From Candidatus Methylomirabilota bacterium (GTDB lineage: Bacteria; Methylomirabilota; Methylomirabilia; Rokubacteriales; CSP1-6): 64,000 nucleotides of DNA. The notes beneath the pieces were generated by a model, which saw nothing but the letters and a program-made list of their open reading frames with translations, ran no database searches and was not told the DNA's origin. Where the stretch lies: the NCBI GenBank assembly GCA_046727415.1, contig JBKPCO010000020.1, positions 659-64,658 on the forward strand, read 5' to 3'. The position numbers and the translations under genes are program-made. Each line of letters starts with the position of its first letter. Positions within the stretch are counted from its first letter, which is position 1. Positions 30,470 to 53,550 of the stretch are shown here, one piece after another.

Positions 30470-33253
30470 TCAGCGGGTCCGGTCGATATCGTGGCCGGCG
30501 GCGGCGAGGGGCGTGTCCGGAGTCCCGCGGACGGGGCTCGGCGCGATGGCCGGGCGGCCCGGCATCGCCTGGAGCAGCACCGGAAGCACGACGAGCGCCG
30601 CGATGAGGCTCGTCGTGGTGCCGAGCGTGAGCAAGAGGCCGAGCCCGAAGATGCCGCGATGGTCGGCGATCATCAGGCTGCCGAAGCCGGCGATGGTCGT
30701 GAGGCCGCTGACCAGCACCGCCATCACCGTCGAGCGCGCGATCAGCGGACCGCCGCGATCGCGGCCCTCGCGATAGCGCATCACGATGTTCAGCCCGTAC
30801 TCTGCGGCGGCGCCGAGGATCAGCGGCAGGCCGAAGACGTTGCCCATGTTGAACTTGAGGCCGAAGAAGTACATGAGCCCGAACGCCCACATGAGGCCGA
30901 GGCCGAGCGGCAGGAGTGCCAGAGCCGTATCGCGGAGCCGTCGCAGCGTCAAAGCGGTGGCGAGCGAGACGAGCAGGATCGCGTAGACCATGCCCTGCTG
31001 GTAGGCGCGCTCCATCAGGCGCAGCGCCTCGAACGTGATGATCGGAGTGCCGGTGACCTCCGGATCGGCCGCGCGAAGGTCGGTGACGAAGCGCCGGGCG
31101 CCGTCCCGGTCCCAGATGTCGACGGCCGGATGGATCTGCAGAAGGAACCGCCCGGTGTCGCTCACGAACTTGGCCCGGAGCTCCTTCGGGACGTCGGCGA
31201 GCCCGATCTGGCGTGGCGCGAGGTTGTCCTGGAGCCGCTGGAAGCTCTTCACGAAGTCGTGATAGAGCTGGTTCTGCAGGTGCGTGAGCGCAGGCTCGCT
31301 CACCTGGACGTCGGTCTGCCGAATCTTGCGAATCAACCGCCCGATGTCGTCGACGACGATCCGGAGCTTGGTCTTGGCGTCGCCCTCTGGGGCTTCGGCG
31401 GCCGCCAGCCCGAAGCGTCGGTTGAGCGTCTCGAGGGCGGTGAGGAGCCGGCCGAGGTTCACCGACGTGGGCCGCCCGATCCGGACCGGCGCCACCAGTG
31501 GCGCGAAGTCGCCGATGATCTTGAGCTTCGCGGGCTGGTCGTCCGGAATCAGGAGCAGCACCGAGTCCACCTCCGACACGGTCGGAAGCGCGCGGAAGGC
31601 GGCGTTCTTCTTTCGGAGCTCCTCGATCGAGTCGGCGCTGGCGAGAGCCGCGAACGCCGAGCGCCGCGCCGTCGCCAGCACGCGCTTCTCCCAGTAGACG
31701 GACTCGGTTCCAAAGGCCTGCAGGTTGAGCAGGTTGTAGTCGAACTCGATGTAGCGCAGGCCCCACGCCGACACGGCCGTCAGCACGAGGGCCATGAGGG
31801 CGACCGTCTTCGGGTACGCGACGAGCCGCTCCACGAAGGGCACGTGGATGCGCTCGAGCGCCAGCGCGCGCGGAATCGTGCCGGCCGGCCGGCTTGCGTG
31901 ACGCCGGTCGACCAGGACGAGCATCGCCGGGAGCACGGTGATCATGGCGAGCCACGCCAGCAGAAGGGCCGTGCCGGCGATGAATCCGAGCTCGCGCACG
32001 CCGCGGAAGTCGGTGAGCCACAGAACGTAGAAGGTGCCGCCCGCCGTCACGGCGCCCAGCAGCATGCCCGGACCGCTGCGCCGGGCCGTGATCTCAATCG
32101 CCTCGCGCAGGTTGCGGCCGAGAAACAGCTCTTCCTCGTAGCGGAAGAGGAAGTAGATGCCGTAGTCGATGCCGATGCCGATCACGATCGAGATGAACAT
32201 GACCGAGAAGAGCGAGAGGTGCCCGATCACCAGGGTGGCGACCCCGATCGACCAGCAGAGGCTCATAGCGAGGACCGCCAGCATCAGGACCGGCTTGCCG
32301 ACGCGCAGGAACGCCACGAGCAACAGGCCAAGGGTAAGGGCGAACGCGATGAGCGTGGCCCGTCCGCTGTCGCGGAACGCCGCTACCATCTCGTCGTTCT
32401 GGAGCGCCGGCTTGCCGGTCACGCCGACCGCAACCTCGGGGAACTCGCCCCGAAGCGAGGCGATCGCCGCGCGGATTCCGTCGATCGCGTGCTGGTCGCC
32501 GGTGAAGCTCCCGCGCTCGGTATCCGGCTCGGCCAGGATGAAGAGCAGCCGCTGGTCCTCGGACAGGAAGTAACCGGCGCCCGGGTGGTCGTCGCCGTCC
32601 ACGGCGAAGAGCGTCCCGAACGGCGACCGGTACGGCCCCGGCCGATCGAGCCGCGCCGCGATCTGAGCGATCAGATCCTGGACGAATCGCAGATCGGCGG
32701 CGCCCTTGCCGTCGTTGAGCCCGAGGTCGATGAAGTGCGAGACGAAGGCAGTCGCGATCTGGGTGCCCATGCCCTCCACCAGCTGGTCGAGGGTCGGCCG
32801 CGCCGCGAACGCCTCCATGAACTCCTGGTAGTCGAAGATCTTGTCGCGGATCGCGGCCAGCTTCTCCTGCGACAGATAGAGGAGCGCACGCCCCTCGAAC
32901 TGCTTGGGGTCGATCCGGTAGGAAATCTGCTTGAGCGGTACGCTGGTCTCGCCGAGCGCGCGGACGAGGCGGTTCGCGTACATCGTCGCCTCGGGCAGGG
33001 AGGGGGCCTCGACGACGATGGCGATGCTCTCGAGATCGGCGAACTCCCGGTCGTACTGGGTGAAGCGCTCGACGTAGGGCCGGCCCGGCGGCAGGAGCGA
33101 CCGGGTCGAGGTGGCGAAGGTGAGGGTGGTGAGCGCGTAGAGCAGCGAAACGATCGCCAGCGAGACGGCGATGGCGACGGTCAGGGCGGGTCGCGCGCAG
33201 CCCAGCCGGACGAGCCGGCGGAGCGGGCGACCGATCCGTTCGGCGAGCGGCAC
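30470..33253 (-). CDS. hpnN: RND/MMPL-type hopanoid transporter HpnN
   Basis: 927 aa with a duplicated 6-TM plus large-loop RND architecture. N-terminus PLRRLVRLGCARPALTVAIAV...YVERFTQYDREF resembles HpnN. Lies in the hopanoid locus. The GTG start abuts the ino1 TAG. Confidence 0.8.
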   Translation of the reverse strand: MPLAERIGRPLRRLVRLGCARPALTVAIAVSLAIVSLLYALTTLTFATSTRSLLPPGRPYVERFTQYDREFADLESIAIVVEAPSLPEATMYANRLVRALGETSVPLKQISYRIDPKQFEGRALLYLSQEKLAAIRDKIFDYQEFMEAFAARPTLDQLVEGMGTQIATAFVSHFIDLGLNDGKGAADLRFVQDLIAQIAARLDRPGPYRSPFGTLFAVDGDDHPGAGYFLSEDQRLLFILAEPDTERGSFTGDQHAIDGIRAAIASLRGEFPEVAVGVTGKPALQNDEMVAAFRDSGRATLIAFALTLGLLLVAFLRVGKPVLMLAVLAMSLCWSIGVATLVIGHLSLFSVMFISIVIGIGIDYGIYFLFRYEEELFLGRNLREAIEITARRSGPGMLLGAVTAGGTFYVLWLTDFRGVRELGFIAGTALLLAWLAMITVLPAMLVLVDRRHASRPAGTIPRALALERIHVPFVERLVAYPKTVALMALVLTAVSAWGLRYIEFDYNLLNLQAFGTESVYWEKRVLATARRSAFAALASADSIEELRKKNAAFRALPTVSEVDSVLLLIPDDQPAKLKIIGDFAPLVAPVRIGRPTSVNLGRLLTALETLNRRFGLAAAEAPEGDAKTKLRIVVDDIGRLIRKIRQTDVQVSEPALTHLQNQLYHDFVKSFQRLQDNLAPRQIGLADVPKELRAKFVSDTGRFLLQIHPAVDIWDRDGARRFVTDLRAADPEVTGTPIITFEALRLMERAYQQGMVYAILLVSLATALTLRRLRDTALALLPLGLGLMWAFGLMYFFGLKFNMGNVFGLPLILGAAAEYGLNIVMRYREGRDRGGPLIARSTVMAVLVSGLTTIAGFGSLMIADHRGIFGLGLLLTLGTTTSLIAALVVLPVLLQAMPGRPAIAPSPVRGTPDTPLAAAGHDIDRTR

Positions 33254-34327
33254 CTACTCGTCGCCGGCGATGAACCGCTCGAGCCGCCGGTGGGCGGTGT
33301 CGTCGGTCCACTGCTCGGGCGGCGACTTCATCAGGTAGGCCGAGGGCGCCAGCAGGGCGCCCTTGATGCCGCGATCGAGCGCGATCTTGCAGCTCCGAAT
33401 CGCGTCGATGACGACGCCCGCGGAGTTCGGCGAGTCCCACACCTCGAGCTTCAGCTCGACGTTGATGGGCTGATCGCCGAAGCCCGAACCCTCGAGCCGG
33501 ATGTGCGCCCACTTGCGGTCGGCCAGCCAGGGCACGTAGTCGCTGGGGCCGATGTGGACGGCGTCGGCCGGCAGCTCGTGGCCGAGCTGCGAGCGGACAG
33601 AATCCGTCTTCGAGATCTTCTTCGACGTCAGCCGGTCGCGCTCGAGCATGTTGTAGAAGTCGGTGTTGCCGCCGAAGTTCAGCTGGCTCGTCCGGTCAAG
33701 TCGCACGCCGCGGTCCATGAACAGATTTGTCAGCACTCGGTGGATGATGGTCGCGCCCACCTGCGACTTCACGTCGTCGCCGACCAGCGGGAGCCCGCGC
33801 TCCTCGAACCGGCGACGCCAGTACTGCTCGCGAGCAATGAACACCGGGATGCAGTTGACGAAGGCGCAGCCGGCGTCGAGGATCTGCTCGACGTACCACT
33901 TGGTCGCCATCTCGCTGCCCACCGGCAGGAAGTTGACGACGACGTTGGTGTTGGTGTCGCGCAGAATGCCGGCGATGTCGGCGGTGGAGCCCGGGGCCTT
34001 TTTGATCATTTGCGAGAGGTAGTGCCCGAGGCCGTCGTGGGTCATCCCGCGCTGGACCGGCACGCCGAGGTGCCCGACGTCGGCGAACTTCACCGTGTTG
34101 TTGGGCGCCTGGTAGATCGCCTCGCCGAGATCACGGCCGACCTTGCGCTCGTCGATGTCGAAGGCGGCGGAGAACTCGATGTCGCGGACGTGGTAGCCCC
34201 CGAGCCTGGGATGCATGAGCCCGGGAATGAATCGGTCGTCCGGCGCGTTCTTGTAGTACTCCACACCCTGGACGAGAGCCGACGCGCAGTTTCCGACGCC
34301 GATGATCGCGACTCTGACGGATCCCAC
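33254..34327 (-). CDS. ino1: myo-inositol-1-phosphate synthase
   Basis: [25 protein letters not shown] is the N-terminus of bacterial/archaeal MIPS. GTG at 34327 with GAGGAGG 6 nt upstream; the track ORF is 20 codons longer. Confidence 0.9.
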
Positions 34328-34432: not shown

Positions 34433-35626
34433 TCAGCCGCTCACCGCGCGGCGGAATCGGTCGCGGATGGCCTCGGGACCGTGCGGAATCCGCGGCGACG
34501 GGGTCTCCACCGAGGTGACCTTGGCCAGGATGAAGTGCGGACCCTCCGCGGTGCGCGCCCTCCGCACGGCCGCCGCGATCTCGTCCGCGGTGGTCACCGC
34601 CGTCGCCGTGAGGTATCCCGCGCCGCGGGCCAGCCGATCGAGCCGGACGTCGCGCGAGAGCGAGCGCTGGCCGCCGGTCGAGCCGTAGACCTCGTTGTCG
34701 AAGACGAGGTGGACGAAGTTGCGCGGGCCGAGGCTGCCGACCATGGCGAGGGTGCCGAGGCTCATCAAGAGGTTGCCGTCGCCGTCGAAGACCACGCATG
34801 CGACCGCCGGCCGCGCCAGCGCGAGCCCGAGCCCGATCGCGGAGGCCATGCCCATCGAGCCGATCATGTAGAAGTTCTGCGGCCGGTCGTCGATCGCGCA
34901 CGATTCGCGACAGATGTAGCCGTTGGCATGAATCACCGGCTCCGCCGAGAGCTCCTTGATCGCCACCGCGATGGCCTCCGCGCGTGAGATCACCGGGGTC
35001 AGCTCGTCATGCTCGGGGGCGGGCGTCGCCGCGGCCGTTTCGCGGCCAACGCGCGACGGCGAAAAGCCGCTCGCCGTGACGGACGCCCCACCGTGCGGAC
35101 CGGAGCTCCGGTGCTCCGCACCAGCCGCGACGACGCCCGGGGGTACGAGGAGCGCGACGGGGCTCGTGCGCGCGTTCATCTCGCGCGCGGCCCAGGCGAC
35201 GAGCTCGCCGGCATGAGCGGCATCGAGAGTGCGATAGGGGATGCGGAGCAGGTCGAGGAGGCTCGGCGTGATCTCGCCGGTCAGGATGTGCTCGGGGGCG
35301 TCCCGACCGCCGAAGCCGCGCCAGGTGACGATCAAGAGCGACGGAAATCCGTACATGAGCGACAGGGACGCGAGCGCGTTGAGGCTCGTGCCGAGCCCGG
35401 AATTCTGCATGATCACCGCGGGCCGCCGGCCGCCGAGCCAGGCGCCGGCGGCGAGCCCGACGGCGACGTCCTCGCGCACCGCCGGAATCCAGGGAGCGGG
35501 CCGGTCGCCCTCGAGCGCGACGATGAGGTCCTCGACCAGCGAGCAGGGGACGCCCGTGTAGAAGTCGAAGCCGTGGTGGTCGAGAAGCGCGGCGAGCTCG
35601 GGCCCCGACAGGTCCGCCGCGCTCAC
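34433..35626 (-). CDS. TPP-dependent decarboxylase of the phosphonopyruvate/sulfopyruvate decarboxylase family (fused alpha-beta)
   Basis: LSGPELAALLDHHGFDFYTGVPCSLVEDL is the N-terminal motif and GSMGMASAIGLGLA...DGDGNLLM the TPP-binding motif. The GTG start overlaps the hpnM TGA. Confidence 0.7.
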   Translation of the reverse strand: MSAADLSGPELAALLDHHGFDFYTGVPCSLVEDLIVALEGDRPAPWIPAVREDVAVGLAAGAWLGGRRPAVIMQNSGLGTSLNALASLSLMYGFPSLLIVTWRGFGGRDAPEHILTGEITPSLLDLLRIPYRTLDAAHAGELVAWAAREMNARTSPVALLVPPGVVAAGAEHRSSGPHGGASVTASGFSPSRVGRETAAATPAPEHDELTPVISRAEAIAVAIKELSAEPVIHANGYICRESCAIDDRPQNFYMIGSMGMASAIGLGLALARPAVACVVFDGDGNLLMSLGTLAMVGSLGPRNFVHLVFDNEVYGSTGGQRSLSRDVRLDRLARGAGYLTATAVTTADEIAAAVRRARTAEGPHFILAKVTSVETPSPRIPHGPEAIRDRFRRAVSG

Positions 35627-36258
35627 CGCTGCGAGGTCCGCTTCTCTTCCTGGATGAACTCCTCCTGCTTGGTTTTCATCTTCTTCACGAGCTCCTGGTA
35701 CGACGAGGTCGTGATGATCTTGTTGAACTGAGTGCGGTAGTTCGAGATCAGGCTGACGCCCTCGATGAGGACGTCGTAGACGAGCCACTGGTCGCCCCGC
35801 TGGTGCATTCGGTAGTCGATGGGGATCTCGGTTTCCTGCTTCGTGATCAGGCGCGTCTTGACGATGGCGCCGTCAGGGTCGACGGCCTCGCCCACGAACC
35901 TGATCTTCTCCCCACCGTAGAGCTCGATCTTCGAGATGTAGGAGCGCTCGAGCAGATCGGCGAAGAGCTGGACGAACTCGTCGCGCTCGGCCTGCGAGCG
36001 GGCCGCCCAGTGCCGCGCGAGCGAGCGCTTAGCCGTCTCGCCGAAGTCGAAGATGTCGTTGGCCACCTGACGAACCGCAGCGCGGCGTTCCCGGGTCTTG
36101 CCCGGCTTCTTGAGCTCCGGATCGTCGAGGATCTTGATCGTCCGATTGATCTGGCCCCTGAGCTGGTCGGTGGGCGCACCCGCCCAGACCTTCCCCAGGT
36201 CGGGGGCCACCAGCAGCAGAGCGGCGGCGAGCGCGAGCGTGCGGGCGAACATGACCAT
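35623..36258 (-). CDS. hpnM: MlaC/Ttg2D-family lipid-binding periplasmic protein (HpnM-type)
   Basis: 211 aa. Signal peptide MVMFARTLALAAALLLVAP. Ttg2D-like body (FDFGETAKRSLARHW...FVQLFADLLERSYI). Confidence 0.75.
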   Translation of the reverse strand: MVMFARTLALAAALLLVAPDLGKVWAGAPTDQLRGQINRTIKILDDPELKKPGKTRERRAAVRQVANDIFDFGETAKRSLARHWAARSQAERDEFVQLFADLLERSYISKIELYGGEKIRFVGEAVDPDGAIVKTRLITKQETEIPIDYRMHQRGDQWLVYDVLIEGVSLISNYRTQFNKIITTSSYQELVKKMKTKQEEFIQEEKRTSQR

Positions 36259-36264
36259 CTCCTC

Positions 36265-36705
36265 CTACACCTTGCCGAAGATGTACTTCGACAGCAACTC
36301 TTCGAAATCCACCGGCGCCTCCACCTCGCGGATACGGCCGTTGGGCGGGATGATCTTGTCCGACCCGCCCGGACTGATACGGATGTACTTCTCGCCGATC
36401 AGCCCCTTCGTCTTGATCGACGCGATCACGTCTTCCTGCAGCTTAACCCCGGAGTGTACGCGCAGCGTGACGCGCGCCTGATAGTCGGCGAGCCCGATCG
36501 ACTCGACGCGGCCGATCTCGACGCCCGCGATCTCGACGGCGGAGCCGGCCTTGAGCCCGCCCACCGACGGGAAATCGACGGTCACCGCGTAGCCGCGGCC
36601 CCCGAGGAAGGAGATCTGGCCCAGCTGGATCGAGAGATATGCCAGAGCCACGATGCCGAGTATGACGAAGATACCCACCGCGATGTTCACCCGCGATCGG
36701 TCCAT
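36265..36705 (-). CDS. mlaD: MlaD-type MCE-domain protein
   Basis: 146 aa. N-terminal TM VNIAVGIFVILGIVALAYLS then the MCE core GLKAGSAVEIAGVEIGRV. ATGA overlap with mlaF. Confidence 0.8.
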   Translation of the reverse strand: MDRSRVNIAVGIFVILGIVALAYLSIQLGQISFLGGRGYAVTVDFPSVGGLKAGSAVEIAGVEIGRVESIGLADYQARVTLRVHSGVKLQEDVIASIKTKGLIGEKYIRISPGGSDKIIPPNGRIREVEAPVDFEELLSKYIFGKV

Positions 36706-37448
36706 CAGCGTTCCTCCGAATTGTCGGACTCGCCCCGGATGAACTGTTGCACGACACGGGAGGACGAGGCCTGGATCGCCGCCGGGGGACCCACCTCGGC
36801 GATCCGGCCGTCGTGGAGCATCGCCACCGTGTCGGCGATCTCGAAGATCTCGGGAATCTCGTGACTGACCACGACCGCCGTGAAGCGGAAGCGGCGGTGT
36901 AGATCGAGGATCAGGTGGTGGATGGTGTTCACCAGCACCGGGTCGAGCCCGGTGGTCGGCTCGTCGAAGAACACGATCTCGGGCTCGGTCACCAGTGCCC
37001 GCGCGATGGCCACGCGCTTGCGCATGCCGCCGGAGATCTCGGCCGGGAACTTGGCGCCCATCCCGTCGAGCCCCACCTGGGCCAGGGCGGCGTCGACGCG
37101 CTTGGCGATCTCGGCGGGGGGCAGGCGCAGCTTCTCGCGGAGCGGAAAGGCGACGTTCTCGTGGCACGACAGCGAGTCGAACAGCGCGCCGCCCTGGAAG
37201 ACGACGCCGTAGCGTCGGCGGATCTCGTCGAGCGCGCGTCCGCGCAGCGCGGTGATGTCGACGCCGTCCACCAGCACGCGGCCCGCGTCGGGGTAGAGGA
37301 GGCCGATGAGGTGCTTGAGCAGCACCGATTTCCCGCCGCCGCTGCGCCCGATGATGACGGTGATCGACCCGGTGGGCACCTCGAGCGACAGGCCGCGCAG
37401 CACCGGCTGGGATCCGAACGACTTCATGAGCGACTCGACCCGGATCAC
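36705..37448 (-). CDS. mlaF: MlaF-type ABC transporter ATPase
   Basis: Walker A GRSGGGKS, signature ISGGMRKRVAIARA, Walker B IVFFDEPTTGLDP. Confidence 0.9.
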   Translation of the reverse strand: MIRVESLMKSFGSQPVLRGLSLEVPTGSITVIIGRSGGGKSVLLKHLIGLLYPDAGRVLVDGVDITALRGRALDEIRRRYGVVFQGGALFDSLSCHENVAFPLREKLRLPPAEIAKRVDAALAQVGLDGMGAKFPAEISGGMRKRVAIARALVTEPEIVFFDEPTTGLDPVLVNTIHHLILDLHRRFRFTAVVVSHEIPEIFEIADTVAMLHDGRIAEVGPPAAIQASSSRVVQQFIRGESDNSEER

Positions 37449-37458
37449 CGCGGCATCC

Positions 37459-38253
37459 TCACGGCAAGACCGAGCCCATGAAGTAATCGCAGACGAGGAT
37501 CAGCACCGAGGAGAGGACGACCGCCTGCGTCGTCGCGCGCGCCACGCCCTCGGCGCCGTGGCCGACGTTGAACCCCTTGTACGTGCAGACCCACGTCACG
37601 ACGATCCCGAACGAGATCGACTTCCAGAAGCCCGTCATGATGTCGGTCATGTCGACGAACGTCCGCATCTCGCCGAAGTACGTGCCTTCCGACAGCCCCA
37701 GGAGGCGCACGCCGACGAGGTAGCCGCCGAAGATTCCGACCACGTCGAAGATGGCCGTCATCAGCGGGAAGGTCACCAGCCCAGCCAGGATCGAGGGCGC
37801 CACCAGGTAACGCATCGGGTTGAGGGCCATGACCGTCAGGGCGTCGATCTGCTCGGTGATGCGCATGATGCCGATCTCGGCGGTGAGCGCCGAGCCGGCG
37901 CGCCCGGTGACCATCAGCGCCGCCAGCACCGGGCCGAGCTCGCGGATCAGCGAGAGCGCAACCGCGGGGCCGAGGAACGCCTCGGAGCCGAAGCGCACGA
38001 GAGTCAGGTAGATCTGGAGCCCGAGGACCATCCCGGTGAAGGTGCCGGTCAGCAGGATGATCAGGAGCGAGCGGTAGCCGATGTAGTCGATGCGGTCGAG
38101 GAACGCCCGGAGCTTGAACGGCGGCGTGACGAGGGCGCCTAGCGCCTCGCCGAAGAAGGTGCCGAACCGGCCGAGTGCATCGACGACTCCGATCGTCCAG
38201 CCCCCGACCAGGTCGAAGGGGCGGAGTGCCGGCGCGACCGGCCGCTCAGGCAT
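37459..38253 (-). CDS. mlaE: MlaE-type ABC transporter permease
   Basis: 264 aa. FTGMVLGLQ...LIRELGPVLAALMVTGRAGSALTAEIG is the MlaE signature. Its start overlaps the shc stop by 8 nt. Confidence 0.9.
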   Translation of the reverse strand: MPERPVAPALRPFDLVGGWTIGVVDALGRFGTFFGEALGALVTPPFKLRAFLDRIDYIGYRSLLIILLTGTFTGMVLGLQIYLTLVRFGSEAFLGPAVALSLIRELGPVLAALMVTGRAGSALTAEIGIMRITEQIDALTVMALNPMRYLVAPSILAGLVTFPLMTAIFDVVGIFGGYLVGVRLLGLSEGTYFGEMRTFVDMTDIMTGFWKSISFGIVVTWVCTYKGFNVGHGAEGVARATTQAVVLSSVLILVCDYFMGSVLP

Positions 38254-40147
38254 GCGCGCGGCGGTAGATTCCCAGGGCCCAGAGAGGGAAGTAGTGGGCG
38301 TAGAGGTGGTACTTCAGGTAGAAGACCCGCGGGAATCCGGTTCCGTTCCAATAGGGGTCGTCCCACGAGCCGTCGTCCCGCTGCGTCCGCAGCAGATACT
38401 CGACGCCGCGCACGACTGCCGGGCCGCTGGTGCGGCCGGCGGCGAAGAGCCCGAGCAACGCCCACGCGGTCTGGCTCGGCATCGACTGGCCCACGCCGGC
38501 GAACTCGGAGTCGTCGTAGCTCTCGCAGGTCTCGCCCCAGCCGCCGTCCTTGTTCTGGTGGCGCTCGAGCCACCGCACTGCGCGCTGGACGTATTCGTGC
38601 CGCAGGTCCTCGCCGATGGCGGCGAGGCCGCGCAGCACCGACCACGTGCCGTAGATGTAGTTCACGCCCCAGCGCCCGTACCACGGCCCGTCGTGCCGCT
38701 GCGCGTGGCGAAGGAAGTCGATCGCGCGCTGAGCGGGCTCGAAATCCTTTTTGTAGCCGAGCGTGCCGAGCAGCTCGAGCCCGCGGCCCGTCAGGTCCTC
38801 GGTGGACGGATCGAGGAGGGCGCCGTGATCGGCGAACGGGATGTGGTTCAGATAGAGGCGATTGTTGTCGGCGTCGAAGGAGGCCCAGCCGCCGTCGCTG
38901 CCCTGCATGCCGAGGAACCAGCCGAGGCCGAGCTCCTTAGCCACCCGGGTGGTGTCGCCGTCGAGCCCGCTCACCTTCTCGAGCGCCATCACGACCATCG
39001 CCGTATCGTCGAGGTCCGGATAGAAGTCATTGCGGTACTGGAAGGCCCAGCCGCCGGGCTTCACGTGTGGCCGCTTCACCTGCCAGTCGCCCGGCACCAG
39101 AACCTGGCACTCGATCATCCACTCGGCGGCGCGGCGCAGCGCCGGATGGTCGGGCGGCACGTCGCTCTCGATCATCGCGTTGACCGCGAGCGCGGTGTCC
39201 CAGACCGGCGAGGGGCAGGGCTGGTAGTGCACGGAGTCGCCGTCCTCGACGGCGAGGGCCTCGATCTCCTTGATCTGCCCCATCACCAGCGGGTGATCGT
39301 CCGGGTACCCGAGCAGCCGCATCGCCAGGATCGAATTCGCCATCGCCGGGTAGATGCCGCCGAGGCCACCGGGAACGGCCAGCCGCTCCTCGAGGAACGC
39401 CCGCGCGGCCTCGACGGCGCGCTTGCGCAGGGGACGCGGGGAGAATCGTTCCCAGATCTTGAGACCGTCGTCGACGGCGATGAAGAAGCTCTTCCAGAAG
39501 AGACCTCGCCAGCTGAAGGGCTCCGGCACGCGCGGAAATCGGAGGCTCGTCTCCTCGCGCGGCTCCGGCCAGAGCTCGTCGAGGGACAGGTGCGGAGGGA
39601 GCCACTTCACCGGCTTGCGGTCCATCAGAACCAGGAGCGGCACCAGCACGGTGCGCGACCAGTACGAGATCTCGTAGATGTTGAACAGGAAGAACGGGCG
39701 CGGCAGCAGCATGATCTCGATCGGCATCGTCGGGACGCCGTTCCAGTCGTACTCGCCGAAGAGCGCGAGCTGGATCTTGGTGAACACGTCCGCCTTGGCC
39801 GGCCCGCCCATCTCGCGGATGCGCTCGCGCGCCGCCAGCATCGCCGAGTCGCTGATCGGGACGCCGGCCATCTTCATGGCGAAGTACGCCTTGATGGTCG
39901 CGGAGAGATTCGCCGGGCCCCCCTCGAAGAGGGAGTACCCGCCGTCGGGAAGCTGCTGCCGCTTGAGGTAACGCACCGAGCGCGTCTCGCGCTCGCGGTT
40001 CACCCGGTCGATCAGATGACAGAGCAGCAGGTACTCGGATGTGATCGTCGTGTTGGCTTCGAGCTGGCCGATCCAGTGGCCATCGGGGGCCTGCTGGCCA
40101 AGCAGATGCGCCTGGGCGCGGCCGATCGCGTCCTGCAGGTGCCTCAC
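38246..40147 (-). CDS. shc: squalene-hopene cyclase
   Basis: 633 aa. Repeated QW motifs (QAPDGHW, QLPDGGY, QNKDGGWGE, QRDDGSW) and the catalytic DxDDTA (YPDLDDTAMVV). GTG start. Confidence 0.95.
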   Translation of the reverse strand: MRHLQDAIGRAQAHLLGQQAPDGHWIGQLEANTTITSEYLLLCHLIDRVNRERETRSVRYLKRQQLPDGGYSLFEGGPANLSATIKAYFAMKMAGVPISDSAMLAARERIREMGGPAKADVFTKIQLALFGEYDWNGVPTMPIEIMLLPRPFFLFNIYEISYWSRTVLVPLLVLMDRKPVKWLPPHLSLDELWPEPREETSLRFPRVPEPFSWRGLFWKSFFIAVDDGLKIWERFSPRPLRKRAVEAARAFLEERLAVPGGLGGIYPAMANSILAMRLLGYPDDHPLVMGQIKEIEALAVEDGDSVHYQPCPSPVWDTALAVNAMIESDVPPDHPALRRAAEWMIECQVLVPGDWQVKRPHVKPGGWAFQYRNDFYPDLDDTAMVVMALEKVSGLDGDTTRVAKELGLGWFLGMQGSDGGWASFDADNNRLYLNHIPFADHGALLDPSTEDLTGRGLELLGTLGYKKDFEPAQRAIDFLRHAQRHDGPWYGRWGVNYIYGTWSVLRGLAAIGEDLRHEYVQRAVRWLERHQNKDGGWGETCESYDDSEFAGVGQSMPSQTAWALLGLFAAGRTSGPAVVRGVEYLLRTQRDDGSWDDPYWNGTGFPRVFYLKYHLYAHYFPLWALGIYRRAHA

Positions 40148-40162: not shown

Positions 40163-40996
40163 ATGCTGACTGGATTACTGAAACCTTCCATGGACCTTCT
40201 CGTCGGAACCATGGTGCTTCGACCGTACGTTTTTGCCTTCCTGGCGGTCTTCCTGGTCGCAGGGGCAGTCGATCTGGGCTGGCGGCGCGTCCTCGGGTTC
40301 GCCGGGTGCGTCTGGCCGGTGGCCTGGCTCGCCGAGTTCTCGTCCACGCGCACCGGAATCCCCTTCGGGCTCTATACGTACACGCAGCTCACGCGCGGCC
40401 GCGAGCTGTTCCTGGCCGACGTGCCCGTGATGGACTCGCTGTCCTTCACCTTCCTCGCCTACGCGTCGTTCTGCCTGGCCCGCGTCGCGCTCGCCGGCCG
40501 GGCGCCGTCGCGGCCGGTAACGGCGGTGCTGGCCGGCTCGCTCATGATGGCGCTCGACGTCGTGATCGATCCGCTCGCGGTGCGCGGCGACCGGTGGTTT
40601 CTCGGCCACCTCTTCTTCTACCCGGAGCCCGGCGTCTACTTCGGCGTGCCGTTGTCGAACTTCGCGGGGTGGGTGATCGTCGGCACGATCGGCGTCGGCT
40701 TCTACCTCGCCTTGATTCATCGGCGCGCCTCGGCCGGCGGGGCCCCAGCCCCGCGACGGCCTGGAGCGCGCACCACCGCCTCGAACGCCTCGGGAGGGCG
40801 GGCCTGGCCCGGTGTCGCGTTATACTACGGCGTGCTCGGGTTCAATCTCGCCATGACGATCCTGATCGGCGAGTGGTGGTTGGCGGCGGTGGGGGCGGCA
40901 GTCCACGTCGCCGTGGCCCTCGCAATCGTTCACTTCAACCGGAGTCCGGGCGTGATCGCGCTCGGCCCTGACCGCGAAGGAATTCAACGCGCATGA
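40163..40996 (+). CDS. polytopic membrane protein of the DUF422/CruF-like carotenoid-biosynthesis family
   Basis: 277 aa. SSTRTGIPFGLYTYT and DPLAVRGDRWF are typical of this family. Only the last 277 codons of the 968-aa track ORF are real. Its stop overlaps the hpnH ATG. Confidence 0.6.
   Translation: MLTGLLKPSMDLLVGTMVLRPYVFAFLAVFLVAGAVDLGWRRVLGFAGCVWPVAWLAEFSSTRTGIPFGLYTYTQLTRGRELFLADVPVMDSLSFTFLAYASFCLARVALAGRAPSRPVTAVLAGSLMMALDVVIDPLAVRGDRWFLGHLFFYPEPGVYFGVPLSNFAGWVIVGTIGVGFYLALIHRRASAGGAPAPRRPGARTTASNASGGRAWPGVALYYGVLGFNLAMTILIGEWWLAAVGAAVHVAVALAIVHFNRSPGVIALGPDREGIQRA
40722..40773. repeat. 52-nt repeat, copy A (inside the DUF422 coding region)
   Basis: ggcgcgcctcggccggcggggccccagccccgcgacggctgGagcgcgcac matches 59047-59098 at 51 of 52 positions. 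Contains the internal hairpin cggggc-ccca-gccccg. Confidence 0.85.
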
Positions 40997-42015
40997 GCGT
41001 GCCCGTCTCTCAGATGTGGGCTGTGGCGACCTATGTCCTCCGTCAAAAGCTCGCCCGCCGGAAGCGCTATCCACTCGTGCTGATGCTCGAGCCCCTGTTC
41101 CGCTGTAACCTCGCATGCGCCGGCTGCGGCAAGATCCAGTACCCGGCGCAGATCTTGAGGAAGCACCTGACGGTCGAGCAGTGCCTGGCGGCGGTGGACG
41201 AGTGCGGGGCGCCGATCGTCTCGATCCCCGGCGGCGAGCCCCTGATGTACCCCGACATCGGCCGCCTCATCGAAGGGCTGGTCGCGCGCAGAAAGTACGT
41301 CTACCTCTGCACCAACGCCATCCTCCTGAAGGAAAAGCTCGAAGCCGGCCTGTTCACGCCCTCGAAGTATCTCTCGTTCAGCGTGCACCTCGACGGGCTC
41401 CGCGAGGAGCACGACGAGGCGGTGTGCCGCGACGGCGTCTACGTCCAGGCCGTTGCCGCCATCAAGGAAGCGCTCCGCCGCGGCTTCCGGGTAACCACCA
41501 ACTCGACTTTGTTCGACGGGACAAGCCCGCTCCGGATGCGAGAGTTCTTCGACGAAGTGATGGACCTGGGCGTCGAGGGCATGATGATCTCGCCCGGCTA
41601 CAGCTACGCCAAGGCGCCGGACCAGGAGCATTTCCTCAGGACGCAGCGCGCGCACGAGCTCTTCTCGAAGATCCTCACGAACCCCAAGCGCCGCTGGCGG
41701 TTCAACCAGTCGCCGCTGTTCCTGCAGTTCCTCATGGGCAAGCAGGACTTCGAGTGCACTCCGTGGGGAAACCCCACGTACAACATATTTGGCTGGCAGC
41801 GGCCCTGTTACCTCCTGCAGGAAGGATACGCCGCGACCTTCAACGAGCTGCTCGAGACCACGCGCTGGGAAAACTATGGGCGGCGCAGCGGCAACGAGAA
41901 GTGCCGCGACTGCATGGTGCACTGCGGCTACGAGCCGACGGCCGTGAACCACACCTTCTCCTCGTGGCGCGGGTTCCGCGATACCGTGGCGGCCACGGTC
42001 ACCGGGCGCTTCTGA
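40993..42015 (+). CDS. hpnH: adenosylhopane synthase, radical SAM
   Basis: 340 aa. LEPLFRCNLACAGCGKIQYP is the CxxxCxxC radical-SAM motif in the HpnH context. Confidence 0.9.
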   Translation: MSVPVSQMWAVATYVLRQKLARRKRYPLVLMLEPLFRCNLACAGCGKIQYPAQILRKHLTVEQCLAAVDECGAPIVSIPGGEPLMYPDIGRLIEGLVARRKYVYLCTNAILLKEKLEAGLFTPSKYLSFSVHLDGLREEHDEAVCRDGVYVQAVAAIKEALRRGFRVTTNSTLFDGTSPLRMREFFDEVMDLGVEGMMISPGYSYAKAPDQEHFLRTQRAHELFSKILTNPKRRWRFNQSPLFLQFLMGKQDFECTPWGNPTYNIFGWQRPCYLLQEGYAATFNELLETTRWENYGRRSGNEKCRDCMVHCGYEPTAVNHTFSSWRGFRDTVAATVTGRF

Positions 42016-42028: not shown

Positions 42029-42397
42029 GTGACGGACGAAACCACGCTCGAGGGCTGGACGCCGGAAGTCGGCGGCAGTCTTTCCCTCGCGACCATCATC
42101 GACATGGCGTTCGACTATCGCGGCAACGTCACCGTGGTGAAGATCGACGGCTCGGAAATGGTCGGCTTCCTGTTCAACCGCAACTCCGACGCGCCCGAGC
42201 CGTTCGTGCAGATGTTCGATCTGGATGGCGAGGGACCGAACACCATCCCCTACCACACGATCCGCACGATCCGGTTCACCGGCCGAGATACGGCGGCGGG
42301 CAATTCTTACGCGGCATGGCTCCGCGCCAAAGAGGCGGCGAAAGCCGCCGGCCATGCTGAGAAGGACTCCGGCCGCACGCCAGTCAGGGACGCGTGA
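42029..42397 (+). CDS. hypothetical protein (122 aa) embedded in the hopanoid operon
   Basis: GTG start 13 nt after hpnH; the stop overlaps the hpnG start. Non-shadow-like composition (MAFDYRGNVTVVKIDGSEMVGFLFNRN...IPYHTIRTIRFTG). No family recognised. Confidence 0.55.
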   Translation: MTDETTLEGWTPEVGGSLSLATIIDMAFDYRGNVTVVKIDGSEMVGFLFNRNSDAPEPFVQMFDLDGEGPNTIPYHTIRTIRFTGRDTAAGNSYAAWLRAKEAAKAAGHAEKDSGRTPVRDA

Positions 42398-43065
42398 CCC
42401 GCGTCCTCGTCGTCACCGCCGTCGAGCTCGAAACCCGTGGTCTGGCCCGTCAGCTCGGCCTCGAGCGCGTCGGCGGGAGCGCGTGGCCGCACTTCCGCGG
42501 CGGCGCGCTCGAGCTCCTCTGCGCCGGCCCGCGGGCCGCGCACCTCGACGCGCGCGCGGCCAGATCGGCGACGACACTGGTTGTCTCGGCGGGCGTCTGC
42601 GGTGCGCTCTCTCCCGATCTCGCCGAGGGCGACCTGGTCGTGCCCGAAGCCGTGGTCGGCGCCGGCGCCGTCCGTCACGCCACCGCGGCGCTGCCCGGCC
42701 TTCGGCGCGCCGGAACTCTCCTGACCGTCGACGCGGTCGTCTCCACCGCCGAGCTGAAGGCGCGGCTCTGGATGGAGACCGGCGCGCTCGCCTGCGACAT
42801 GGAATCCGTGGCAATCGTGGAGTGGGCTCGGGGCCGAGGGCTCCCGGCGGCCGTCGTCCGTGGGGTCTCCGACACGTCAAGCCGCGGCGTCCCGCCCGAC
42901 CTCGCGGCGGTCGTCGAGCCCGACGGCCGCGTGCGCACGACGCGCGCCGTCCGCGTCGTGCTCTCGCGTCCGGGCGCCATCGCGGAGGCGATGATGCTCC
43001 GGAGTGGGACGCAGGCGGCCCTGAAGTCAGTCGCCGCCGCGCTCGGCACGGTCGCCCGCTCATGA
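42394..43065 (+). CDS. hpnG: hopanoid-associated phosphorylase/nucleosidase (PNP-UDP family)
   Basis: 223 aa. SAGVCGALSPDLAEGDLVVP and ACDMESVAI...RGVSD are PNP_UDP_1 motifs. Sits between hpnH and hpnA. Confidence 0.8.
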   Translation: MTRVLVVTAVELETRGLARQLGLERVGGSAWPHFRGGALELLCAGPRAAHLDARAARSATTLVVSAGVCGALSPDLAEGDLVVPEAVVGAGAVRHATAALPGLRRAGTLLTVDAVVSTAELKARLWMETGALACDMESVAIVEWARGRGLPAAVVRGVSDTSSRGVPPDLAAVVEPDGRVRTTRAVRVVLSRPGAIAEAMMLRSGTQAALKSVAAALGTVARS

Positions 43066-44081
43066 ACCGTATCGACGCCTTGGTGACCGGGGGGACGGGC
43101 TTCGTCGGCGCCAACGTCGTGCGCGAGCTCCTGCGCGAGGGCGCCACGGTTCGCGTGCTGGCGCGCGCCCACGGCGATCGCCGCGCGCTCGAAGGGCTGA
43201 CGGTGGACGTATGCGAGGGCGACCTCGGCGATCCCTCGTCGCTCCGTCGCGCGGTCCAGGACGTGCGAACCGTCTACCATGTGGCCGCCGACTACCGGCT
43301 TTGGGCCCGGCGGCCCGAGGAGCTGTACCGGACCAATGTCGAGGGTACCCGCGCCATCCTTCAGGCCGCCGCCGACGCTGGCGTGAGCCGCGTGGTGCAC
43401 ACGTCGAGCGTCGGCGCGCTCGGCATCCCCGGCGACGGCACGCCGGGCACGGAGACGACGCCGGTCACGCTCGCGGACATGGTGGGTCCGTACAAGGCGT
43501 CGAAGTTCCTCGCCGAGCAGGTCGCCGTCGGCTTCGCGCTCAAGGGGCTCCCCGTCGTGATCGTGAATCCTTCGACGCCGATCGGTCCGTGGGACGTCAA
43601 GCCGACGCCGACCGGCCAGATGATCGTCGACTTCTTGCAGGGCAAGATGTTCGCGACACTGGACACGGGGCTCAACCTGGTCCACGTGCGCGACGTCGCG
43701 CGCGGCCATCTGCTGGCCGCCGAGCGCGGCCAGAGCGGTGAGAAGTACATTCTCGGCCACGCGAACGGAAACCTCACGCTCGCCGAGATCGGCGCACTGC
43801 TCGCGGAGATCACCGGCGGCCGGCCGCCGCGCATGCGCATTCCCTACGCCGTCGCCTGGCTCGCCGCCGGGTGCATGGAGGTCGCCGCCCGGGTCACCGG
43901 CGGCACGCCGCGCGCGTCGCTGACGGCGGTGCGCATGGCGAAGAAGAAAATGTTCTTCAGCCCGGCGAAGGCCCGGCGCGACCTCGGCCTGCCGCAGACC
44001 GACGTGCGCGACGCGCTCCGCGACGCGACCGACTGGTTCGTCGAGCACGGGTACGCCCGGCTCGCGAGAAAGATCGCGTGA
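43062..44081 (+). CDS. hpnA: hopanoid-associated NAD-dependent sugar epimerase/dehydratase
   Basis: MNRIDALVTGGTGFVGANVV is the GxxGxxG motif and YKASK the catalytic motif. ATGA overlap with hpnG. Confidence 0.85.
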   Translation: MNRIDALVTGGTGFVGANVVRELLREGATVRVLARAHGDRRALEGLTVDVCEGDLGDPSSLRRAVQDVRTVYHVAADYRLWARRPEELYRTNVEGTRAILQAAADAGVSRVVHTSSVGALGIPGDGTPGTETTPVTLADMVGPYKASKFLAEQVAVGFALKGLPVVIVNPSTPIGPWDVKPTPTGQMIVDFLQGKMFATLDTGLNLVHVRDVARGHLLAAERGQSGEKYILGHANGNLTLAEIGALLAEITGGRPPRMRIPYAVAWLAAGCMEVAARVTGGTPRASLTAVRMAKKKMFFSPAKARRDLGLPQTDVRDALRDATDWFVEHGYARLARKIA

Positions 44082-44965
44082 TCGGACGCCTGGCCGCCCG
44101 GCTGACGCGCAAGAGCCGTTCGAACTTCTACTACGCCTTCCTCACGCTGCCGCGCCGCCGGCGGGAGGCGCTCTACGCGGTGTACGCATTCTGCCGGACG
44201 GTGGACGACATCGCGGACCTCGGCGACGAGCGCGGCGTCGACCGCGCCGCGCAGCGGAGCCAGCTCGAAAGCTGGCGCCGCCACGTCGCGCTCTGCTACG
44301 AGCCGGGGGGTCGCCCTGAGCATCCGATCGCGGCAGGGCTGGCGCGCGCGGTGAGCGAGTTCGCGATCCCCCGCGAGGCTCTCCTGGCGATTATCGACGG
44401 GGTGGAAATGGACCTCGATCAGGTCCGCTACGAGACCGCCGAGGACCTCTATCCCTACTGCTATCGCGTCGCCTCAGCGGTCGGCCTCTGCTGCATCGAG
44501 ATCTTCGGCTACACGGATCCGCGCGCCCGCGAGTACGCGGTGAACCTCGGTACGGCGCTCCAGCTGACGAACATCATCCGCGACGTCGGCGCCGACGCCC
44601 GCGCCGGCCGCGTGTACCTGCCGCAGGAAGACCTCCGGAAGTTCGGCGTGACCACGGACGACCTGCGGGCCGGACGCTACACCGGCGAGTTCGTGAGCCT
44701 CATGCGCCACCAGGCGGCGCGGGCCCGGCAGTTCTACCGGGCCGCGCGAGACGCCTTTCCGGCGATGGACGCGCGCTCGCTGGTGGCCGCGGAGATCATG
44801 GGGCGAATCTACCGGGCGCTGCTCGACGAGATCGAGACGCGTGAGTTCCGCGTGTTCGGGGAGCGCATCACCCTGCCGACCGGCCGCAAGCTCGCGATCG
44901 CGCTTCGCTGCTGGGCGTCGGCTCGGTTCGGCCACGCCGGGCCGCGCGGCGAGCGCGCCGCGTGA
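44078..44965 (+). CDS. hpnD: squalene/phytoene synthase family enzyme, HpnD-like (presqualene diphosphate synthase)
   Basis: SRSNFYYAFLTLPRRRREALYAVYAFCRTVDDIAD and NIIRDVGADARAGRVYLPQED are the two Asp-rich regions. The GTG overlaps the hpnA TGA. Confidence 0.75.
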   Translation: MIGRLAARLTRKSRSNFYYAFLTLPRRRREALYAVYAFCRTVDDIADLGDERGVDRAAQRSQLESWRRHVALCYEPGGRPEHPIAAGLARAVSEFAIPREALLAIIDGVEMDLDQVRYETAEDLYPYCYRVASAVGLCCIEIFGYTDPRAREYAVNLGTALQLTNIIRDVGADARAGRVYLPQEDLRKFGVTTDDLRAGRYTGEFVSLMRHQAARARQFYRAARDAFPAMDARSLVAAEIMGRIYRALLDEIETREFRVFGERITLPTGRKLAIALRCWASARFGHAGPRGERAA

Positions 44966-45969
44966 AGGCCGCGGTTTATCGCGGCGTCGCCGGCGTCGCG
45001 GTCGAGGACTGGCCCAGGCCCGCCATTGGCCCGGGCGAGGCGCTGCTGCGGCTCAAGGGCTGCGGTCTCTGCGGCTCGGACATCGCCAAGCTCGGTGATC
45101 CGGCGACGAAGATCCCGGCGGTGTTCGGCCACGAGGTCGTGGGCGAGGTGACGGCGCTCGGCGTGGGTGTGTCGGGCTACGCGGTCGGCGATCGCGTCGT
45201 GGTCGCGCACCACGTGCCGTGCGGCGCCTGTCACTACTGCCGCCGGGGCAGCGAATCGATGTGCGCCTCGTTCAAGGCGTCGAACCTGGACCCGGGCGGC
45301 TTCGCCGAGTACGTGCGCGTCCCGGAGCCGAACGTGCTGCACGCGATGTTTCGCGTGCCGCCCCACGTCGGCGACGTGGCGGCGTCGTTCGTGGAGCCGC
45401 TGGCCTGCTGCGTGCGGGCCGTGCGGCGTACGGGGATCCGTCCGGGCGACACCGCCGTGGTCGTGGGCCTGGGTTCGATCGGCTGTCTCTTCGTACAGTT
45501 GCTCAAGCATGCCGGCGCCCTCGTCGTGGGCTGTGACACACTTGCCGACCGCGTCGCCCTCGCCCGGCGACTGGGAGCCGACGCCTGCGGATCGGCTGAC
45601 CCGGCCGGCGTCGCCGCGCGCGCGCTGAGCGACGGGCGGGGAGCCGATCACGTGATCGTCACCGGCGGCGGCGCGCAGGTCTTGCCGTGGGCGGCGGACG
45701 TGCTCCGCGACGGCGGTGCCGTGCACTGCTTCGCGGGCGGGGGCGACACACTACCTCTCTCGCTCGACCGGCTCTACCGCCGCGAGCTGACGATCACGGC
45801 CACCTATTCGTCGTCCCCATCCGATCTGGCCGAAGCGTTTCGCCTGATCGAGGGCAACGCGATCGAGGTCGAAAGCCTCGTCACGCACTGCGTGCCGCTC
45901 GAGAGCCTCGCGAAGGGCGTGGAGCTGATGCGCCGGCGCGAGGCCTTGAAGGTGTACGTGACGCCATGA
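44962..45969 (+). CDS. zinc-dependent medium-chain dehydrogenase (threonine/sorbitol dehydrogenase-like) 1
   Basis: GCGLCGSDI, GHEVVGEV, structural Zn CGACHYCRRGSESMC, VGLGSIG. Overlaps the hpnD stop by 4 nt. Confidence 0.85.
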   Translation: MKAAVYRGVAGVAVEDWPRPAIGPGEALLRLKGCGLCGSDIAKLGDPATKIPAVFGHEVVGEVTALGVGVSGYAVGDRVVVAHHVPCGACHYCRRGSESMCASFKASNLDPGGFAEYVRVPEPNVLHAMFRVPPHVGDVAASFVEPLACCVRAVRRTGIRPGDTAVVVGLGSIGCLFVQLLKHAGALVVGCDTLADRVALARRLGADACGSADPAGVAARALSDGRGADHVIVTGGGAQVLPWAADVLRDGGAVHCFAGGGDTLPLSLDRLYRRELTITATYSSSPSDLAEAFRLIEGNAIEVESLVTHCVPLESLAKGVELMRRREALKVYVTP

Positions 45970-46988
45970 GGGCGATGGTGTTCCACGGGCCGGGCGACCT
46001 CCGCGCGGAGGAGCTGCCGGTTCCGGTCCCGGGGCCGGGCGAAGTCGTCCTGAAGATCGACGCCGCGCTCACGTGCGGCACCGACGTGAAGACGCTGCGG
46101 CGCGGCCATCCGGTGATGATCCCGAAGATCCCGACAGTCTTCGGCCACGAGTTCGCCGGCACCGTCAGCGCGGTGGGCGCCGGCGTGGCGCTGCGCGAGG
46201 GCGACCGCGTGGTGGCGGCCAACTCGGCGCCCTGCGGCGCCTGCGCCTCGTGCCGCGGCGGGCGGCCGAATCTCTGCGAGGACTTGCTGTTCGTCAACGG
46301 CGCCTACGGCGAGTTCATCGCGCTGCCGCCGCGGCTCGTCTCGCTCAACGTCGTGCCGCTGGCGCCCTCGCTTCCGGCCGCGCGCGCGGCGTTCGCCGAG
46401 CCCCTGGCGTGCGCGCTCTTGGCGATCGAGCGGGCGCGGATCGAGGCGGGGCAGACCGTGGTGGTGCTCGGTCACGGGCCGTTCGGCTGCCTGCTCGGGA
46501 TGCTCGCGAGGTCCGGTGGCGCGCGCGTCATGGTGGTCGGAAAGGCCGGATGGCGATTCGATCGACTCAAGCGTCTGGGCTTCGCGCGCTGCCTCGACGC
46601 CACGGCCGCCGGCAGCGTGGTCGAGGAGATCCGGGGCCTCACCGCCGGGCGCGGAGCCGACGTGGTCATCGAGGCCACCGGCCGGCCCGAGGTGTGGGAG
46701 CAGGCCGTGGACGCCGTGGGGCGCGGCGGCACCGTGGTATTCTTTGGTGGGTGCGCTCCCGGGACTTCCATCCGCCTGGACACGCGGCGGGCGCACTACG
46801 AGGAGCTGGCGCTCCTCGGCGCGTTTCATCACACGCCGGGAACGATCCGTCGGGCGGTGGAGGCGCTGGAGTCGGGCGTGCTCGCGCCGGACAGTCTCAT
46901 CACACACCGGATGCGGCTCGACGAGGTCGGGCGCGCGCTCGAGCTCATGGCCAGAGGCGAGGCCCTCAAAGTGCTGATCGAGCCCTGA
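45966..46988 (+). CDS. zinc-dependent medium-chain dehydrogenase 2 (paralogue of the preceding gene)
   Basis: Start MRAMVFHGPG (ATGA overlap). AALTCGTDVK, GHEFAGTV, CGACASCRGGRPNLC. Confidence 0.85.
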   Translation: MRAMVFHGPGDLRAEELPVPVPGPGEVVLKIDAALTCGTDVKTLRRGHPVMIPKIPTVFGHEFAGTVSAVGAGVALREGDRVVAANSAPCGACASCRGGRPNLCEDLLFVNGAYGEFIALPPRLVSLNVVPLAPSLPAARAAFAEPLACALLAIERARIEAGQTVVVLGHGPFGCLLGMLARSGGARVMVVGKAGWRFDRLKRLGFARCLDATAAGSVVEEIRGLTAGRGADVVIEATGRPEVWEQAVDAVGRGGTVVFFGGCAPGTSIRLDTRRAHYEELALLGAFHHTPGTIRRAVEALESGVLAPDSLITHRMRLDEVGRALELMARGEALKVLIEP

Positions 46989-49961: not shown

Positions 49962-50021
49962 CGCGTTTGTCATTCGGTGGTAGCATGCGGGCCACCGCAT
50001 CGCGTTCCAGGAGGCCTGCTG

Positions 50022-53543: not shown

Positions 53544-53550
53544 CCGCCTG

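Follow-up and report, generated by a model that had tools for sequence, protein, structure and literature searches.

To our knowledge, the passage of hopanoids through the periplasm is an unsolved question, and HpnN is the sole transporter for it with experimental support. The locus described here lies in a window of 64,000 nucleotides (64 kb) from metagenome contig JBKPCO010000020.1, a stretch of high guanine-plus-cytosine (GC) content (approximately 68%) from an uncultured soil bacterium of the Rokubacteria (Methylomirabilota). In this window the gene of squalene-hopene cyclase (SHC; shc) is followed on the same strand by mlaE, mlaF, mlaD and an MlaC-family gene, the components of an Mla-type ATP-binding cassette (ABC) lipid transporter, and further downstream by the gene of an HpnN-like RND exporter.

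The transporter resembles the Mla system of Escherichia coli and other Proteobacteria (MlaFEDB-MlaC-MlaA) in its MlaE permease, MlaF-like ATPase, short single-MCE MlaD and soluble MlaC. It differs in gene order (E-F-D-C instead of F-E-D-C-B), and its locus contains neither MlaB nor MlaA and is embedded in a hopanoid operon. MCE/YrbE transporters are able to carry polycyclic lipids, as Mce4 does cholesterol. The actinobacterial Mce4, an importer of host sterol built from two YrbE and six Mce subunits, offers a YrbE/MCE precedent for moving polycyclic triterpenoid-like lipids, although YrbE1A resembles the window's MlaE at an E-value of 1e-21 only. Polycyclic lipids are also moved by the BstABC sterol transport system of Methylococcus, in which an HpnN-like RND pump is combined with a periplasmic carrier (PMC11713862); its carrier BstB, however, is PhnD-like and not MlaC-like.

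For hopanoids themselves, Lawrence et al. (bioRxiv 10.1101/2025.07.29.667474) proposed, on the basis of microsynteny and AlphaFold3, that the MlaC-like HpnM and the MlaA-like HpnS of Proteobacteria act with HpnN as an Mla-analogous hopanoid shuttle, a pathway that is only predicted. Extra mlaC copies beside hopanoid genes, with the canonical mla genes elsewhere, are attributed in the same preprint to Tripathi et al. 2025. The present locus shares with that system an MlaC-family gene in a cluster that also encodes hopanoid biosynthesis and an HpnN-type RND protein, and with it the idea of an Mla-like periplasmic shuttle. The proteobacterial clusters, however, hold a lone extra MlaC paralog (HpnM) and the MlaA-like HpnS, their canonical mla operon being elsewhere, whereas the cluster in the window holds the whole MlaEFD-MlaC set without an MlaA-like gene, and its MlaC falls below the HpnM cut-off. 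MlaE, MlaF and MlaD beside shc are not mentioned in the preprint, and the terms MlaE, MlaD and Mce are absent from the text of its supplements (for two of these, from the portion available). Literature searches found no published description of shc-mlaEFDC linkage or of a hopanoid operon that includes the full MlaEFDC set.

Structure and family membership of the operon

The order on the minus strand is shc, mlaE, mlaF, mlaD, the MlaC-family gene, a thiamine-pyrophosphate (TPP) enzyme gene, ino1 and the HpnN-like gene (Table 1). The shc/mlaE junction reads ...CGCGCATGCCTGAGCG..., and the two genes share the 8 nucleotides (nt) ATGCCTGA, the ATG of mlaE lying within the end of shc. Direct reading of this junction confirmed the overlap between the shc stop (38246) and the mlaE start (38253) that an earlier note on this sequence had described. 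The spacing of the following genes by gaps or overlaps of no more than 10 nt, also claimed there, was likewise borne out: mlaE and mlaF are separated by 10 nt bearing a Shine-Dalgarno-like GAGGA, mlaF and mlaD overlap by 1 nt (TGATG, preceded by GGAGGA, the ATG of mlaD being at 36705), and 6 nt bearing AGGAGGAG separate mlaD from the MlaC-family gene. An alternative ATG 6 nt downstream would shorten the MlaC-family protein to 209 amino acids (aa) and widen the last gap to 12 nt. Further along, the TPP-enzyme gene overlaps mlaC by 4 nt and the gap between ino1 and hpnN is 0 nt. The MlaC-family gene is thus two genes away from the HpnN-like gene, which stands in the same strand block as the note had it, and shc is located four genes upstream. 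No terminator-like or promoter-like site above chance was found from shc through hpnN. The alignment of MlaE with its orthologs begins at residue 1. The mla genes are translationally coupled with SHC inside a hopanoid operon, and this organization suggests that they are co-transcribed with it.

Profile searches upheld the family identities. SHC scores 759.9 bits on TIGR01507 (cut-off 431.1) and possesses the DxDD motif in the form DLDDTA. MlaE scores 257.2 bits on TIGR00056 (cut-off 212.2) and 265.6 bits on PF02405, and matches MlaE of P. aeruginosa (E 3e-60) and E. coli (E 1e-54) in the PDB; on the E. coli-type exception model NF033619 it reaches 274.8 bits, below 315. The best NCBIfam match of the ATPase is MlaF (NF008809, 196 bits), under the equivalog cut-off of 441, and its Walker A (GRSGGGKS), signature (ISGGM) and Walker B (IVFFDEP) motifs are intact. 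MlaD scores 141.5 bits on TIGR04430 (cut-off 135) and 81.3 bits on PF02470, and the MlaC-family protein, with a signal-peptide-like N-terminus, scores 164.7 bits on PF05494 (cut-off 26). The equivalog models of E. coli type (MlaE_1, MlaF, MlaC) were all matched below their cut-offs. An MlaE permease, an adjacent cognate ATPase, a single-MCE MlaD with membrane anchor and a soluble MlaC-fold carrier are therefore all present, and the junctions together with the profile searches support the claim of a complete MlaE-MlaF-MlaD-MlaC set coupled to shc. MlaD is of the short type (146 aa), which requires a soluble MlaC shuttle (Grasekamp et al. 2023, PMC10665443). By these assignments, the four genes constitute a canonical Mla-type ABC lipid transporter that depends on MlaC and is native to the lineage; in Methylomirabilota it has become part of the hopanoid operon.

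The HpnN-like protein covers positions 4-858 of the 862 of TIGR03480 at 560.8 bits (cut-off 751.85) and scores 355 bits on NF052374 (cut-off 1100); HpnN is its best full-length match, ahead of BstA (271 bits). The TPP enzyme scores 297.2 bits on TIGR03297, just below the cut-off of 312.5, and the ino1 product 517.8 bits on TIGR03450 (cut-off 638).

Conservation of the linkage and ancestry of the transporter

The proteins of the window were compared with 80 MlaE-centred GTDB loci (the best 80 orthologs) and 80 HpnN-centred loci, which together comprise 115 distinct mlaE loci (loci are designated L plus a number). The closest GTDB relatives of MlaE belong to metagenome-assembled genomes (MAGs) of Candidatus Rokubacteria (Rokuibacteriota/Methylomirabilota), with up to 94% identity, and its best 120 homologous proteins are all orthologs at 75% identity or more. 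In 59 of the 115 loci shc is found directly upstream of mlaE on the same strand, and in 50 of these 59 the shc stop and the mlaE start overlap, by 8 nt (23 loci), 4 nt (26 loci) or 1 nt (one locus), a recurrence that places the arrangement far beyond chance. The adjacency is accordingly not unique to this genome, as the earlier note had allowed it might be, and is conserved across the phylum Methylomirabilota.

The NC10/Methylomirabilales loci (L090-L097, e.g. L092:1030-11246) display a different order, namely a divergent cruF-like gene followed by mlaE-mlaF-mlaD-tolC-mlaC1-hpnN-mlaC2-shc, with hpnN between two MlaC paralogs and shc downstream rather than upstream. A search with the NC10 MlaC2 paralog retrieved the 8 NC10 loci only and revealed no hidden HpnM-like copy in Rokubacteria. 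In one Rokubacterial subclade shc has been relocated, but mlaE is still divergent from the cruF-like gene and hpnH, and hpnN is still downstream. In every arrangement hopanoid genes enclose the mla genes, with cruF-like and hpnH at one end and hpnN at the other. When MlaE, MlaF and MlaD were concatenated for a neighbour-joining tree, all hopanoid-linked operons grouped in a single clade, indicating that the linkage arose once and was then retained, and the persistence of the same genes in the different NC10 order argues that it is ancient and under selection. By this comparison the shc-mla linkage is ancient, was acquired once and has been maintained through rearrangement, and a chance neighbourhood is excluded. 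Contigs of the Rokubacteria hopanoid-mla type were also encountered in GTDB MAGs labelled Nitrosotalea, Nitrosocosmicus, Solirubrobacterales, Gemmatimonadales, Acidoferrum, Verrucomicrobiia and Binatia (L033, L131, L132, L133, L162, L165 and L008/L021/L038); these labels likely reflect mis-binning or mislabelling.

The next-closest MlaE proteins (58-66% identity) are distributed amongst Nitrospirota, Thermodesulfobacteriota, Brocadiales and a few other lineages. Their operons are direct orthologs with the same E-F-D-C order and form the sister clade of the hopanoid-linked operons in the tree, but in all 36 outgroup loci the 8 kb flanking each side are free of hopanoid genes. In the majority of these loci, mlaD and mlaC are separated by a TolC-family outer-membrane gene with a product of about 450 aa. 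This gene is kept in deep-branching Rokubacteria and NC10, and has been lost in the clade of the window. The arrangement mlaD-tolC-mlaC recalls the mlaEFD-tolC-tamB operon of Veillonella parvula (PMC10665443), with which it has in common the E-F-D order and an ancient pairing of mlaEFD with a tolC homolog, and by analogy suggests that in tolC-bearing operons a TolC-like protein may replace MlaA as the partner in the outer membrane. The MlaD of Veillonella, however, is an elongated bridge-type protein that works without MlaC, unlike the short MlaD of the window with its MlaC. The orthologous operon also occurs in Thermodesulfovibrionia, for example in Thermodesulfovibrio sp. N1 (L059), a group in which SHC was found in none of 20 genomes (Lawrence et al., supplement file 5, bioRxiv 10.1101/2025.07.29.667474).

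Grasekamp et al. 2023 (PMC10665443) tabulated Mla proteins per genome in their Supplementary Data 1, from which the protein counts below are taken. Three Rokubacteria MAGs each possess 2 MlaE, 2 MlaD, 3-5 MlaC-family proteins, 0-1 MlaA, encoded at another site, and no MlaB; two of these MAGs, 13_2_20CM_69_15_1 and GWA2_70_23, correspond to loci L108 and L164, and both carry the hopanoid-linked operon. Ca. Methylomirabilis lanthanidiphila has 3 MlaE, 3 MlaD, 2 MlaC-family proteins, 1 MlaA and no MlaB, with three complete E-F-D sets. T. yellowstonii has 3 MlaE, 3 MlaD, 1 MlaC-family protein and neither MlaA nor MlaB, and Kuenenia 2 MlaE, 2 MlaD, 1 MlaC-family protein, 1 MlaA and no MlaB, its MlaC-bearing set being ordered E-F-D-C-A. 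MlaA and MlaB are largely specific to Proteobacteria. With two MlaE and two MlaD per Rokubacteria MAG, the hopanoid-linked operon is not the sole MlaE/MlaD pair in this group, and the case raised in the earlier note, an adjacency confined to one genome without a second canonical mla locus, does not hold. A scan of GTDB with a GC-biased degenerate MlaE motif placed no Rokubacteria among the at least 120 matches listed. The hopanoid-linked operon is the ortholog of the outgroups' sole MlaC-bearing, canonical-like set. This evidence cuts both ways, as the second pair could take over housekeeping or serve other lipids, while the hopanoid-linked set is the one most like classical Mla. The MlaC-family proteins (3-5) outnumber the two MlaE/MlaD pairs in each Rokubacteria MAG, implying several orphan MlaC-like carriers elsewhere in these genomes.

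Neighbouring genes of the hopanoid block

Table 1. Genes of the hopanoid-mla block in the window, with examples of additional genes in related loci
Feature	Position	Strand	Length and family evidence
shc, squalene-hopene cyclase	38246-40147	-	633 aa; TIGR01507, Pfam SQHop_cyclase_N and _C, DxDD
mlaE, MlaE-family ABC permease	37459-38253	-	264 aa; TIGR00056, PF02405
mlaF-like ABC ATPase	36705-37448	-	247 aa; NF008809 best NCBIfam match, PF00005
mlaD, short single-MCE protein with N-terminal membrane anchor	36265-36705	-	146 aa; TIGR04430, PF02470
MlaC-family periplasmic lipid-binding protein, signal peptide	35623-36258	-	211 or 209 aa; PF05494
Phosphonopyruvate-decarboxylase-like TPP enzyme	34433-35626	-	397 aa; TIGR03297, Pfam TPP_enzyme_N and _C
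ino1, inositol-3-phosphate synthase-like	33254-34327	-	357 aa; TIGR03450, PF01658
HpnN-like MMPL/HAE3 RND transporter	30470-33253	-	927 aa; TIGR03480 best match, Pfam MMPL
CruF-like membrane protein	40190-40996	+	PF04240; weak CruF matches
hpnH, adenosyl-hopene transferase	40993-42015	+	TIGR03470, 531.5 bits (cut-off 225)
Conserved 122-aa open reading frame	42029-42397	+	No Pfam or NCBIfam match
hpnG-like nucleosidase/phosphorylase	42394-43065	+	TIGR03468, 107.4 bits (cut-off 187.1); PF01048
hpnA, hopanoid-associated sugar epimerase	43062-44081	+	TIGR03466, 456.2 bits (cut-off 367.65)
hpnD-type presqualene diphosphate synthase	44078-44965	+	TIGR03465, 316.6 bits (cut-off 278.6)
Two tandem Zn-dependent alcohol dehydrogenases	44962-45969, 45966-46988	+	Weak IolM, Tdh and HpnZ_proposed matches
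ispH/lytB	47002-47994	+	PF02401
TolC-family gene between mlaD and mlaC (examples in related loci)	L046:9973-11322, L059:6763-8127, L045:10021-11502, L039:9967-11499
Phosphonate cassette (examples in relatives)	L036:10662-12329, L037:10733-12400

Directly after mlaC, many relatives possess a phosphonate cassette consisting of a 555-aa fusion of phosphoenolpyruvate (PEP) mutase and nucleotidyltransferase, a phosphonopyruvate decarboxylase, a 246-aa nucleotidyltransferase and a 390-aa protein (L017, L018, L027, L029, L036, L037, L042, L050 and many hpnN-centred loci). The cassette varies, and in the clade of the window most of it is gone, only the decarboxylase-like gene being retained; no PEP mutase was found in the 64 kb. 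The ino1 gene is the most conserved of the block (81-94% identity across Rokubacteria), and its position abutting hpnN might point to a head group or lipid that derives from inositol and is tied to HpnN.

On the other side of shc, the CruF-like gene, a member of the carotenoid hydratase family, is divergent from shc across a 42-bp intergenic region. It keeps its position beside hpnH in all Methylomirabilota loci examined, which makes its uncharacterised product a candidate that may modify hopanoids. The open reading frame between hpnH and hpnG is kept throughout the phylum at 39-74% identity. The hopanoid cluster contains a single SQS_PSY gene, which scores as HpnD, and neither HpnC nor HpnE was found near it. 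The tandem alcohol dehydrogenases that follow show weak similarity to scyllo-inosose dehydrogenase and to the family named HpnZ_proposed. An unrelated sulfur-oxidation region occupies approximately 49900-64000 of the window and encodes a rhodanese/beta-lactamase-fold protein, a sulfur transporter, flavocytochrome c sulfide dehydrogenase, a molybdopterin oxidoreductase with NrfD/4Fe-4S partners, and SoxYZA, the last assigned via identity to another JGI contig.

Cargo of the transporter and biological meaning

The reading favoured here, though held tentatively and at somewhat less than even confidence, is that hopanoids are cargo of the MlaC carrier, and probably also of MlaFED, in cooperation with HpnN. 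It is put forward because the linkage is strong and persistent, because hpnN in NC10 stands between two MlaC genes, because HpnM and hpnN are associated independently in Proteobacteria, and because sterol-carrying MCE systems provide a precedent. In such a scheme SHC would make hopanoids at the inner membrane, where the proton-driven HpnN and the ATP-driven MlaFED would both act, the Mla set being expressed alongside SHC and the HpnN-like RND exporter. We infer both hopanoids as the cargo and the cooperation of MlaC with HpnN.

Several observations weigh against this reading. The MlaC-family gene was described in the earlier note as of HpnM type. It does occur in the context of HpnM, within a hopanoid cluster near hpnN, but its score on the HpnM model TIGR03481 is 88.8 bits, short of the cut-off of 160.1, and control MlaC proteins from operons without hopanoid linkage score alike at 74.7-101.7 bits (Thermodesulfovibrio 101.7, a Thermodesulfovibrionales MAG 89.6, Nitrospira 93.3, Kuenenia 74.7), as do the two NC10 copies (80.2 and 74.9 bits). 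The HpnM label was rejected for these reasons; HpnM as best match appears to be the default for non-enterobacterial MlaC proteins and not diagnostic. The top sequence match, 11hy, annotated as "Exported protein", represents a phospholipid binder of Bordetella rather than an HpnM. The ratio of MlaC to MlaE identity, 0.78 between linked and unlinked operons and 0.77 among unlinked ones, reveals no excess divergence of MlaC as a sign of altered specificity. The structure prediction suggested earlier for this protein yielded an AlphaFold2 model (pLDDT 73), for which Foldseek returned only the phospholipid-binding MlaC/Ttg2D as structural neighbours (template-modelling scores of 0.72-0.78, normalised to the target) and no non-phospholipid one. 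No MlaA, MlaB or TolC was found in the Pfam annotation of approximately 12-64 kb of the window, the operon included. The operon is, moreover, a vertical ortholog of the mlaEFD-tolC-mlaC operons of Nitrospirota and Thermodesulfobacteriota, and since Thermodesulfovibrionia carry it without SHC, its ancestral cargo was not a hopanoid. No feature detected in the proteins marks hopanoid specificity, and the cargo is undecidable from sequence.

Much of this evidence would suit a housekeeping Mla that handles phospholipids only. MlaC would then traffic glycerophospholipids for lipid homeostasis of the outer membrane, the removal or supply of phospholipid would be regulated jointly with the delivery of hopanoids to that membrane, and HpnN alone would move hopanoids. 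This is a real possibility, though a somewhat less likely one than the favoured reading. Vertical orthology to the only MlaC-bearing set of the outgroups (E-F-D-C-A in Kuenenia; the single MlaC of T. yellowstonii), the same operon in SHC-free Thermodesulfovibrionia, the absence of excess MlaC divergence, phospholipid-binding structural neighbours and the missed HpnM cut-off all favour it. Co-regulation alone, however, seldom preserves stop/start overlaps with an enzyme gene (here in 50 of 59 species-level genomes) or linkage through rearrangement; nor does it readily accommodate the NC10 hpnN gene flanked by two MlaC genes, and the other MlaE/MlaD pairs could do the housekeeping. The earlier note had gone further in the opposite direction, proposing a machine dedicated to hopanoids rather than phospholipids. 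In this narrower form of the favoured reading, the Mla set would have been re-purposed as a two-engine pair with HpnN, one engine driving hopanoids outward via MlaC and the other retrieving them, with the second MlaE/MlaD pair taking over phospholipid housekeeping. Such dedication is unlikely, given the HpnM score, the orthology to SHC-free operons, the undiverged MlaC and its phospholipid-binding structural relatives.

The position of the phosphonate cassette in many relatives, and of ino1 always, between mlaC and hpnN, with ino1 adjoining hpnN as the most conserved gene of the block, raises the alternative that the transporter carries a different lipid product of the cluster, either a phosphonate- or inositol-bearing lipid or a hopanoid with such a head group. 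This is quite improbable, as the cassette varies and has largely disappeared from the window's clade, PEP mutase is lacking from the 64 kb, the mla-shc-hpnN linkage is constant regardless of the cassette, and a lipid-head-group transferase was not identified. That the adjacency is functionally meaningless, the mla genes merely hitch-hiking, would agree with outgroup orthologs that function without a hopanoid neighbour, but is extremely unlikely in view of a linkage conserved in two orders despite rearrangement and of the conserved translational coupling.

The phylum-wide wiring of MlaEFD-MlaC to the cyclase and HpnN provides independent genomic evidence for MlaC-family carriers that may work with HpnN, and it offers a defined four-gene module for the question of how hopanoids pass through the periplasm. 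Were phospholipids the only cargo, these cells would couple phospholipid trafficking stoichiometrically to hopanoid synthesis, which would bear on the balance of lipid classes in the outer membrane. Were the transporter dedicated to hopanoids, it would be the first of Mla type specialised for an endogenous polycyclic triterpenoid.

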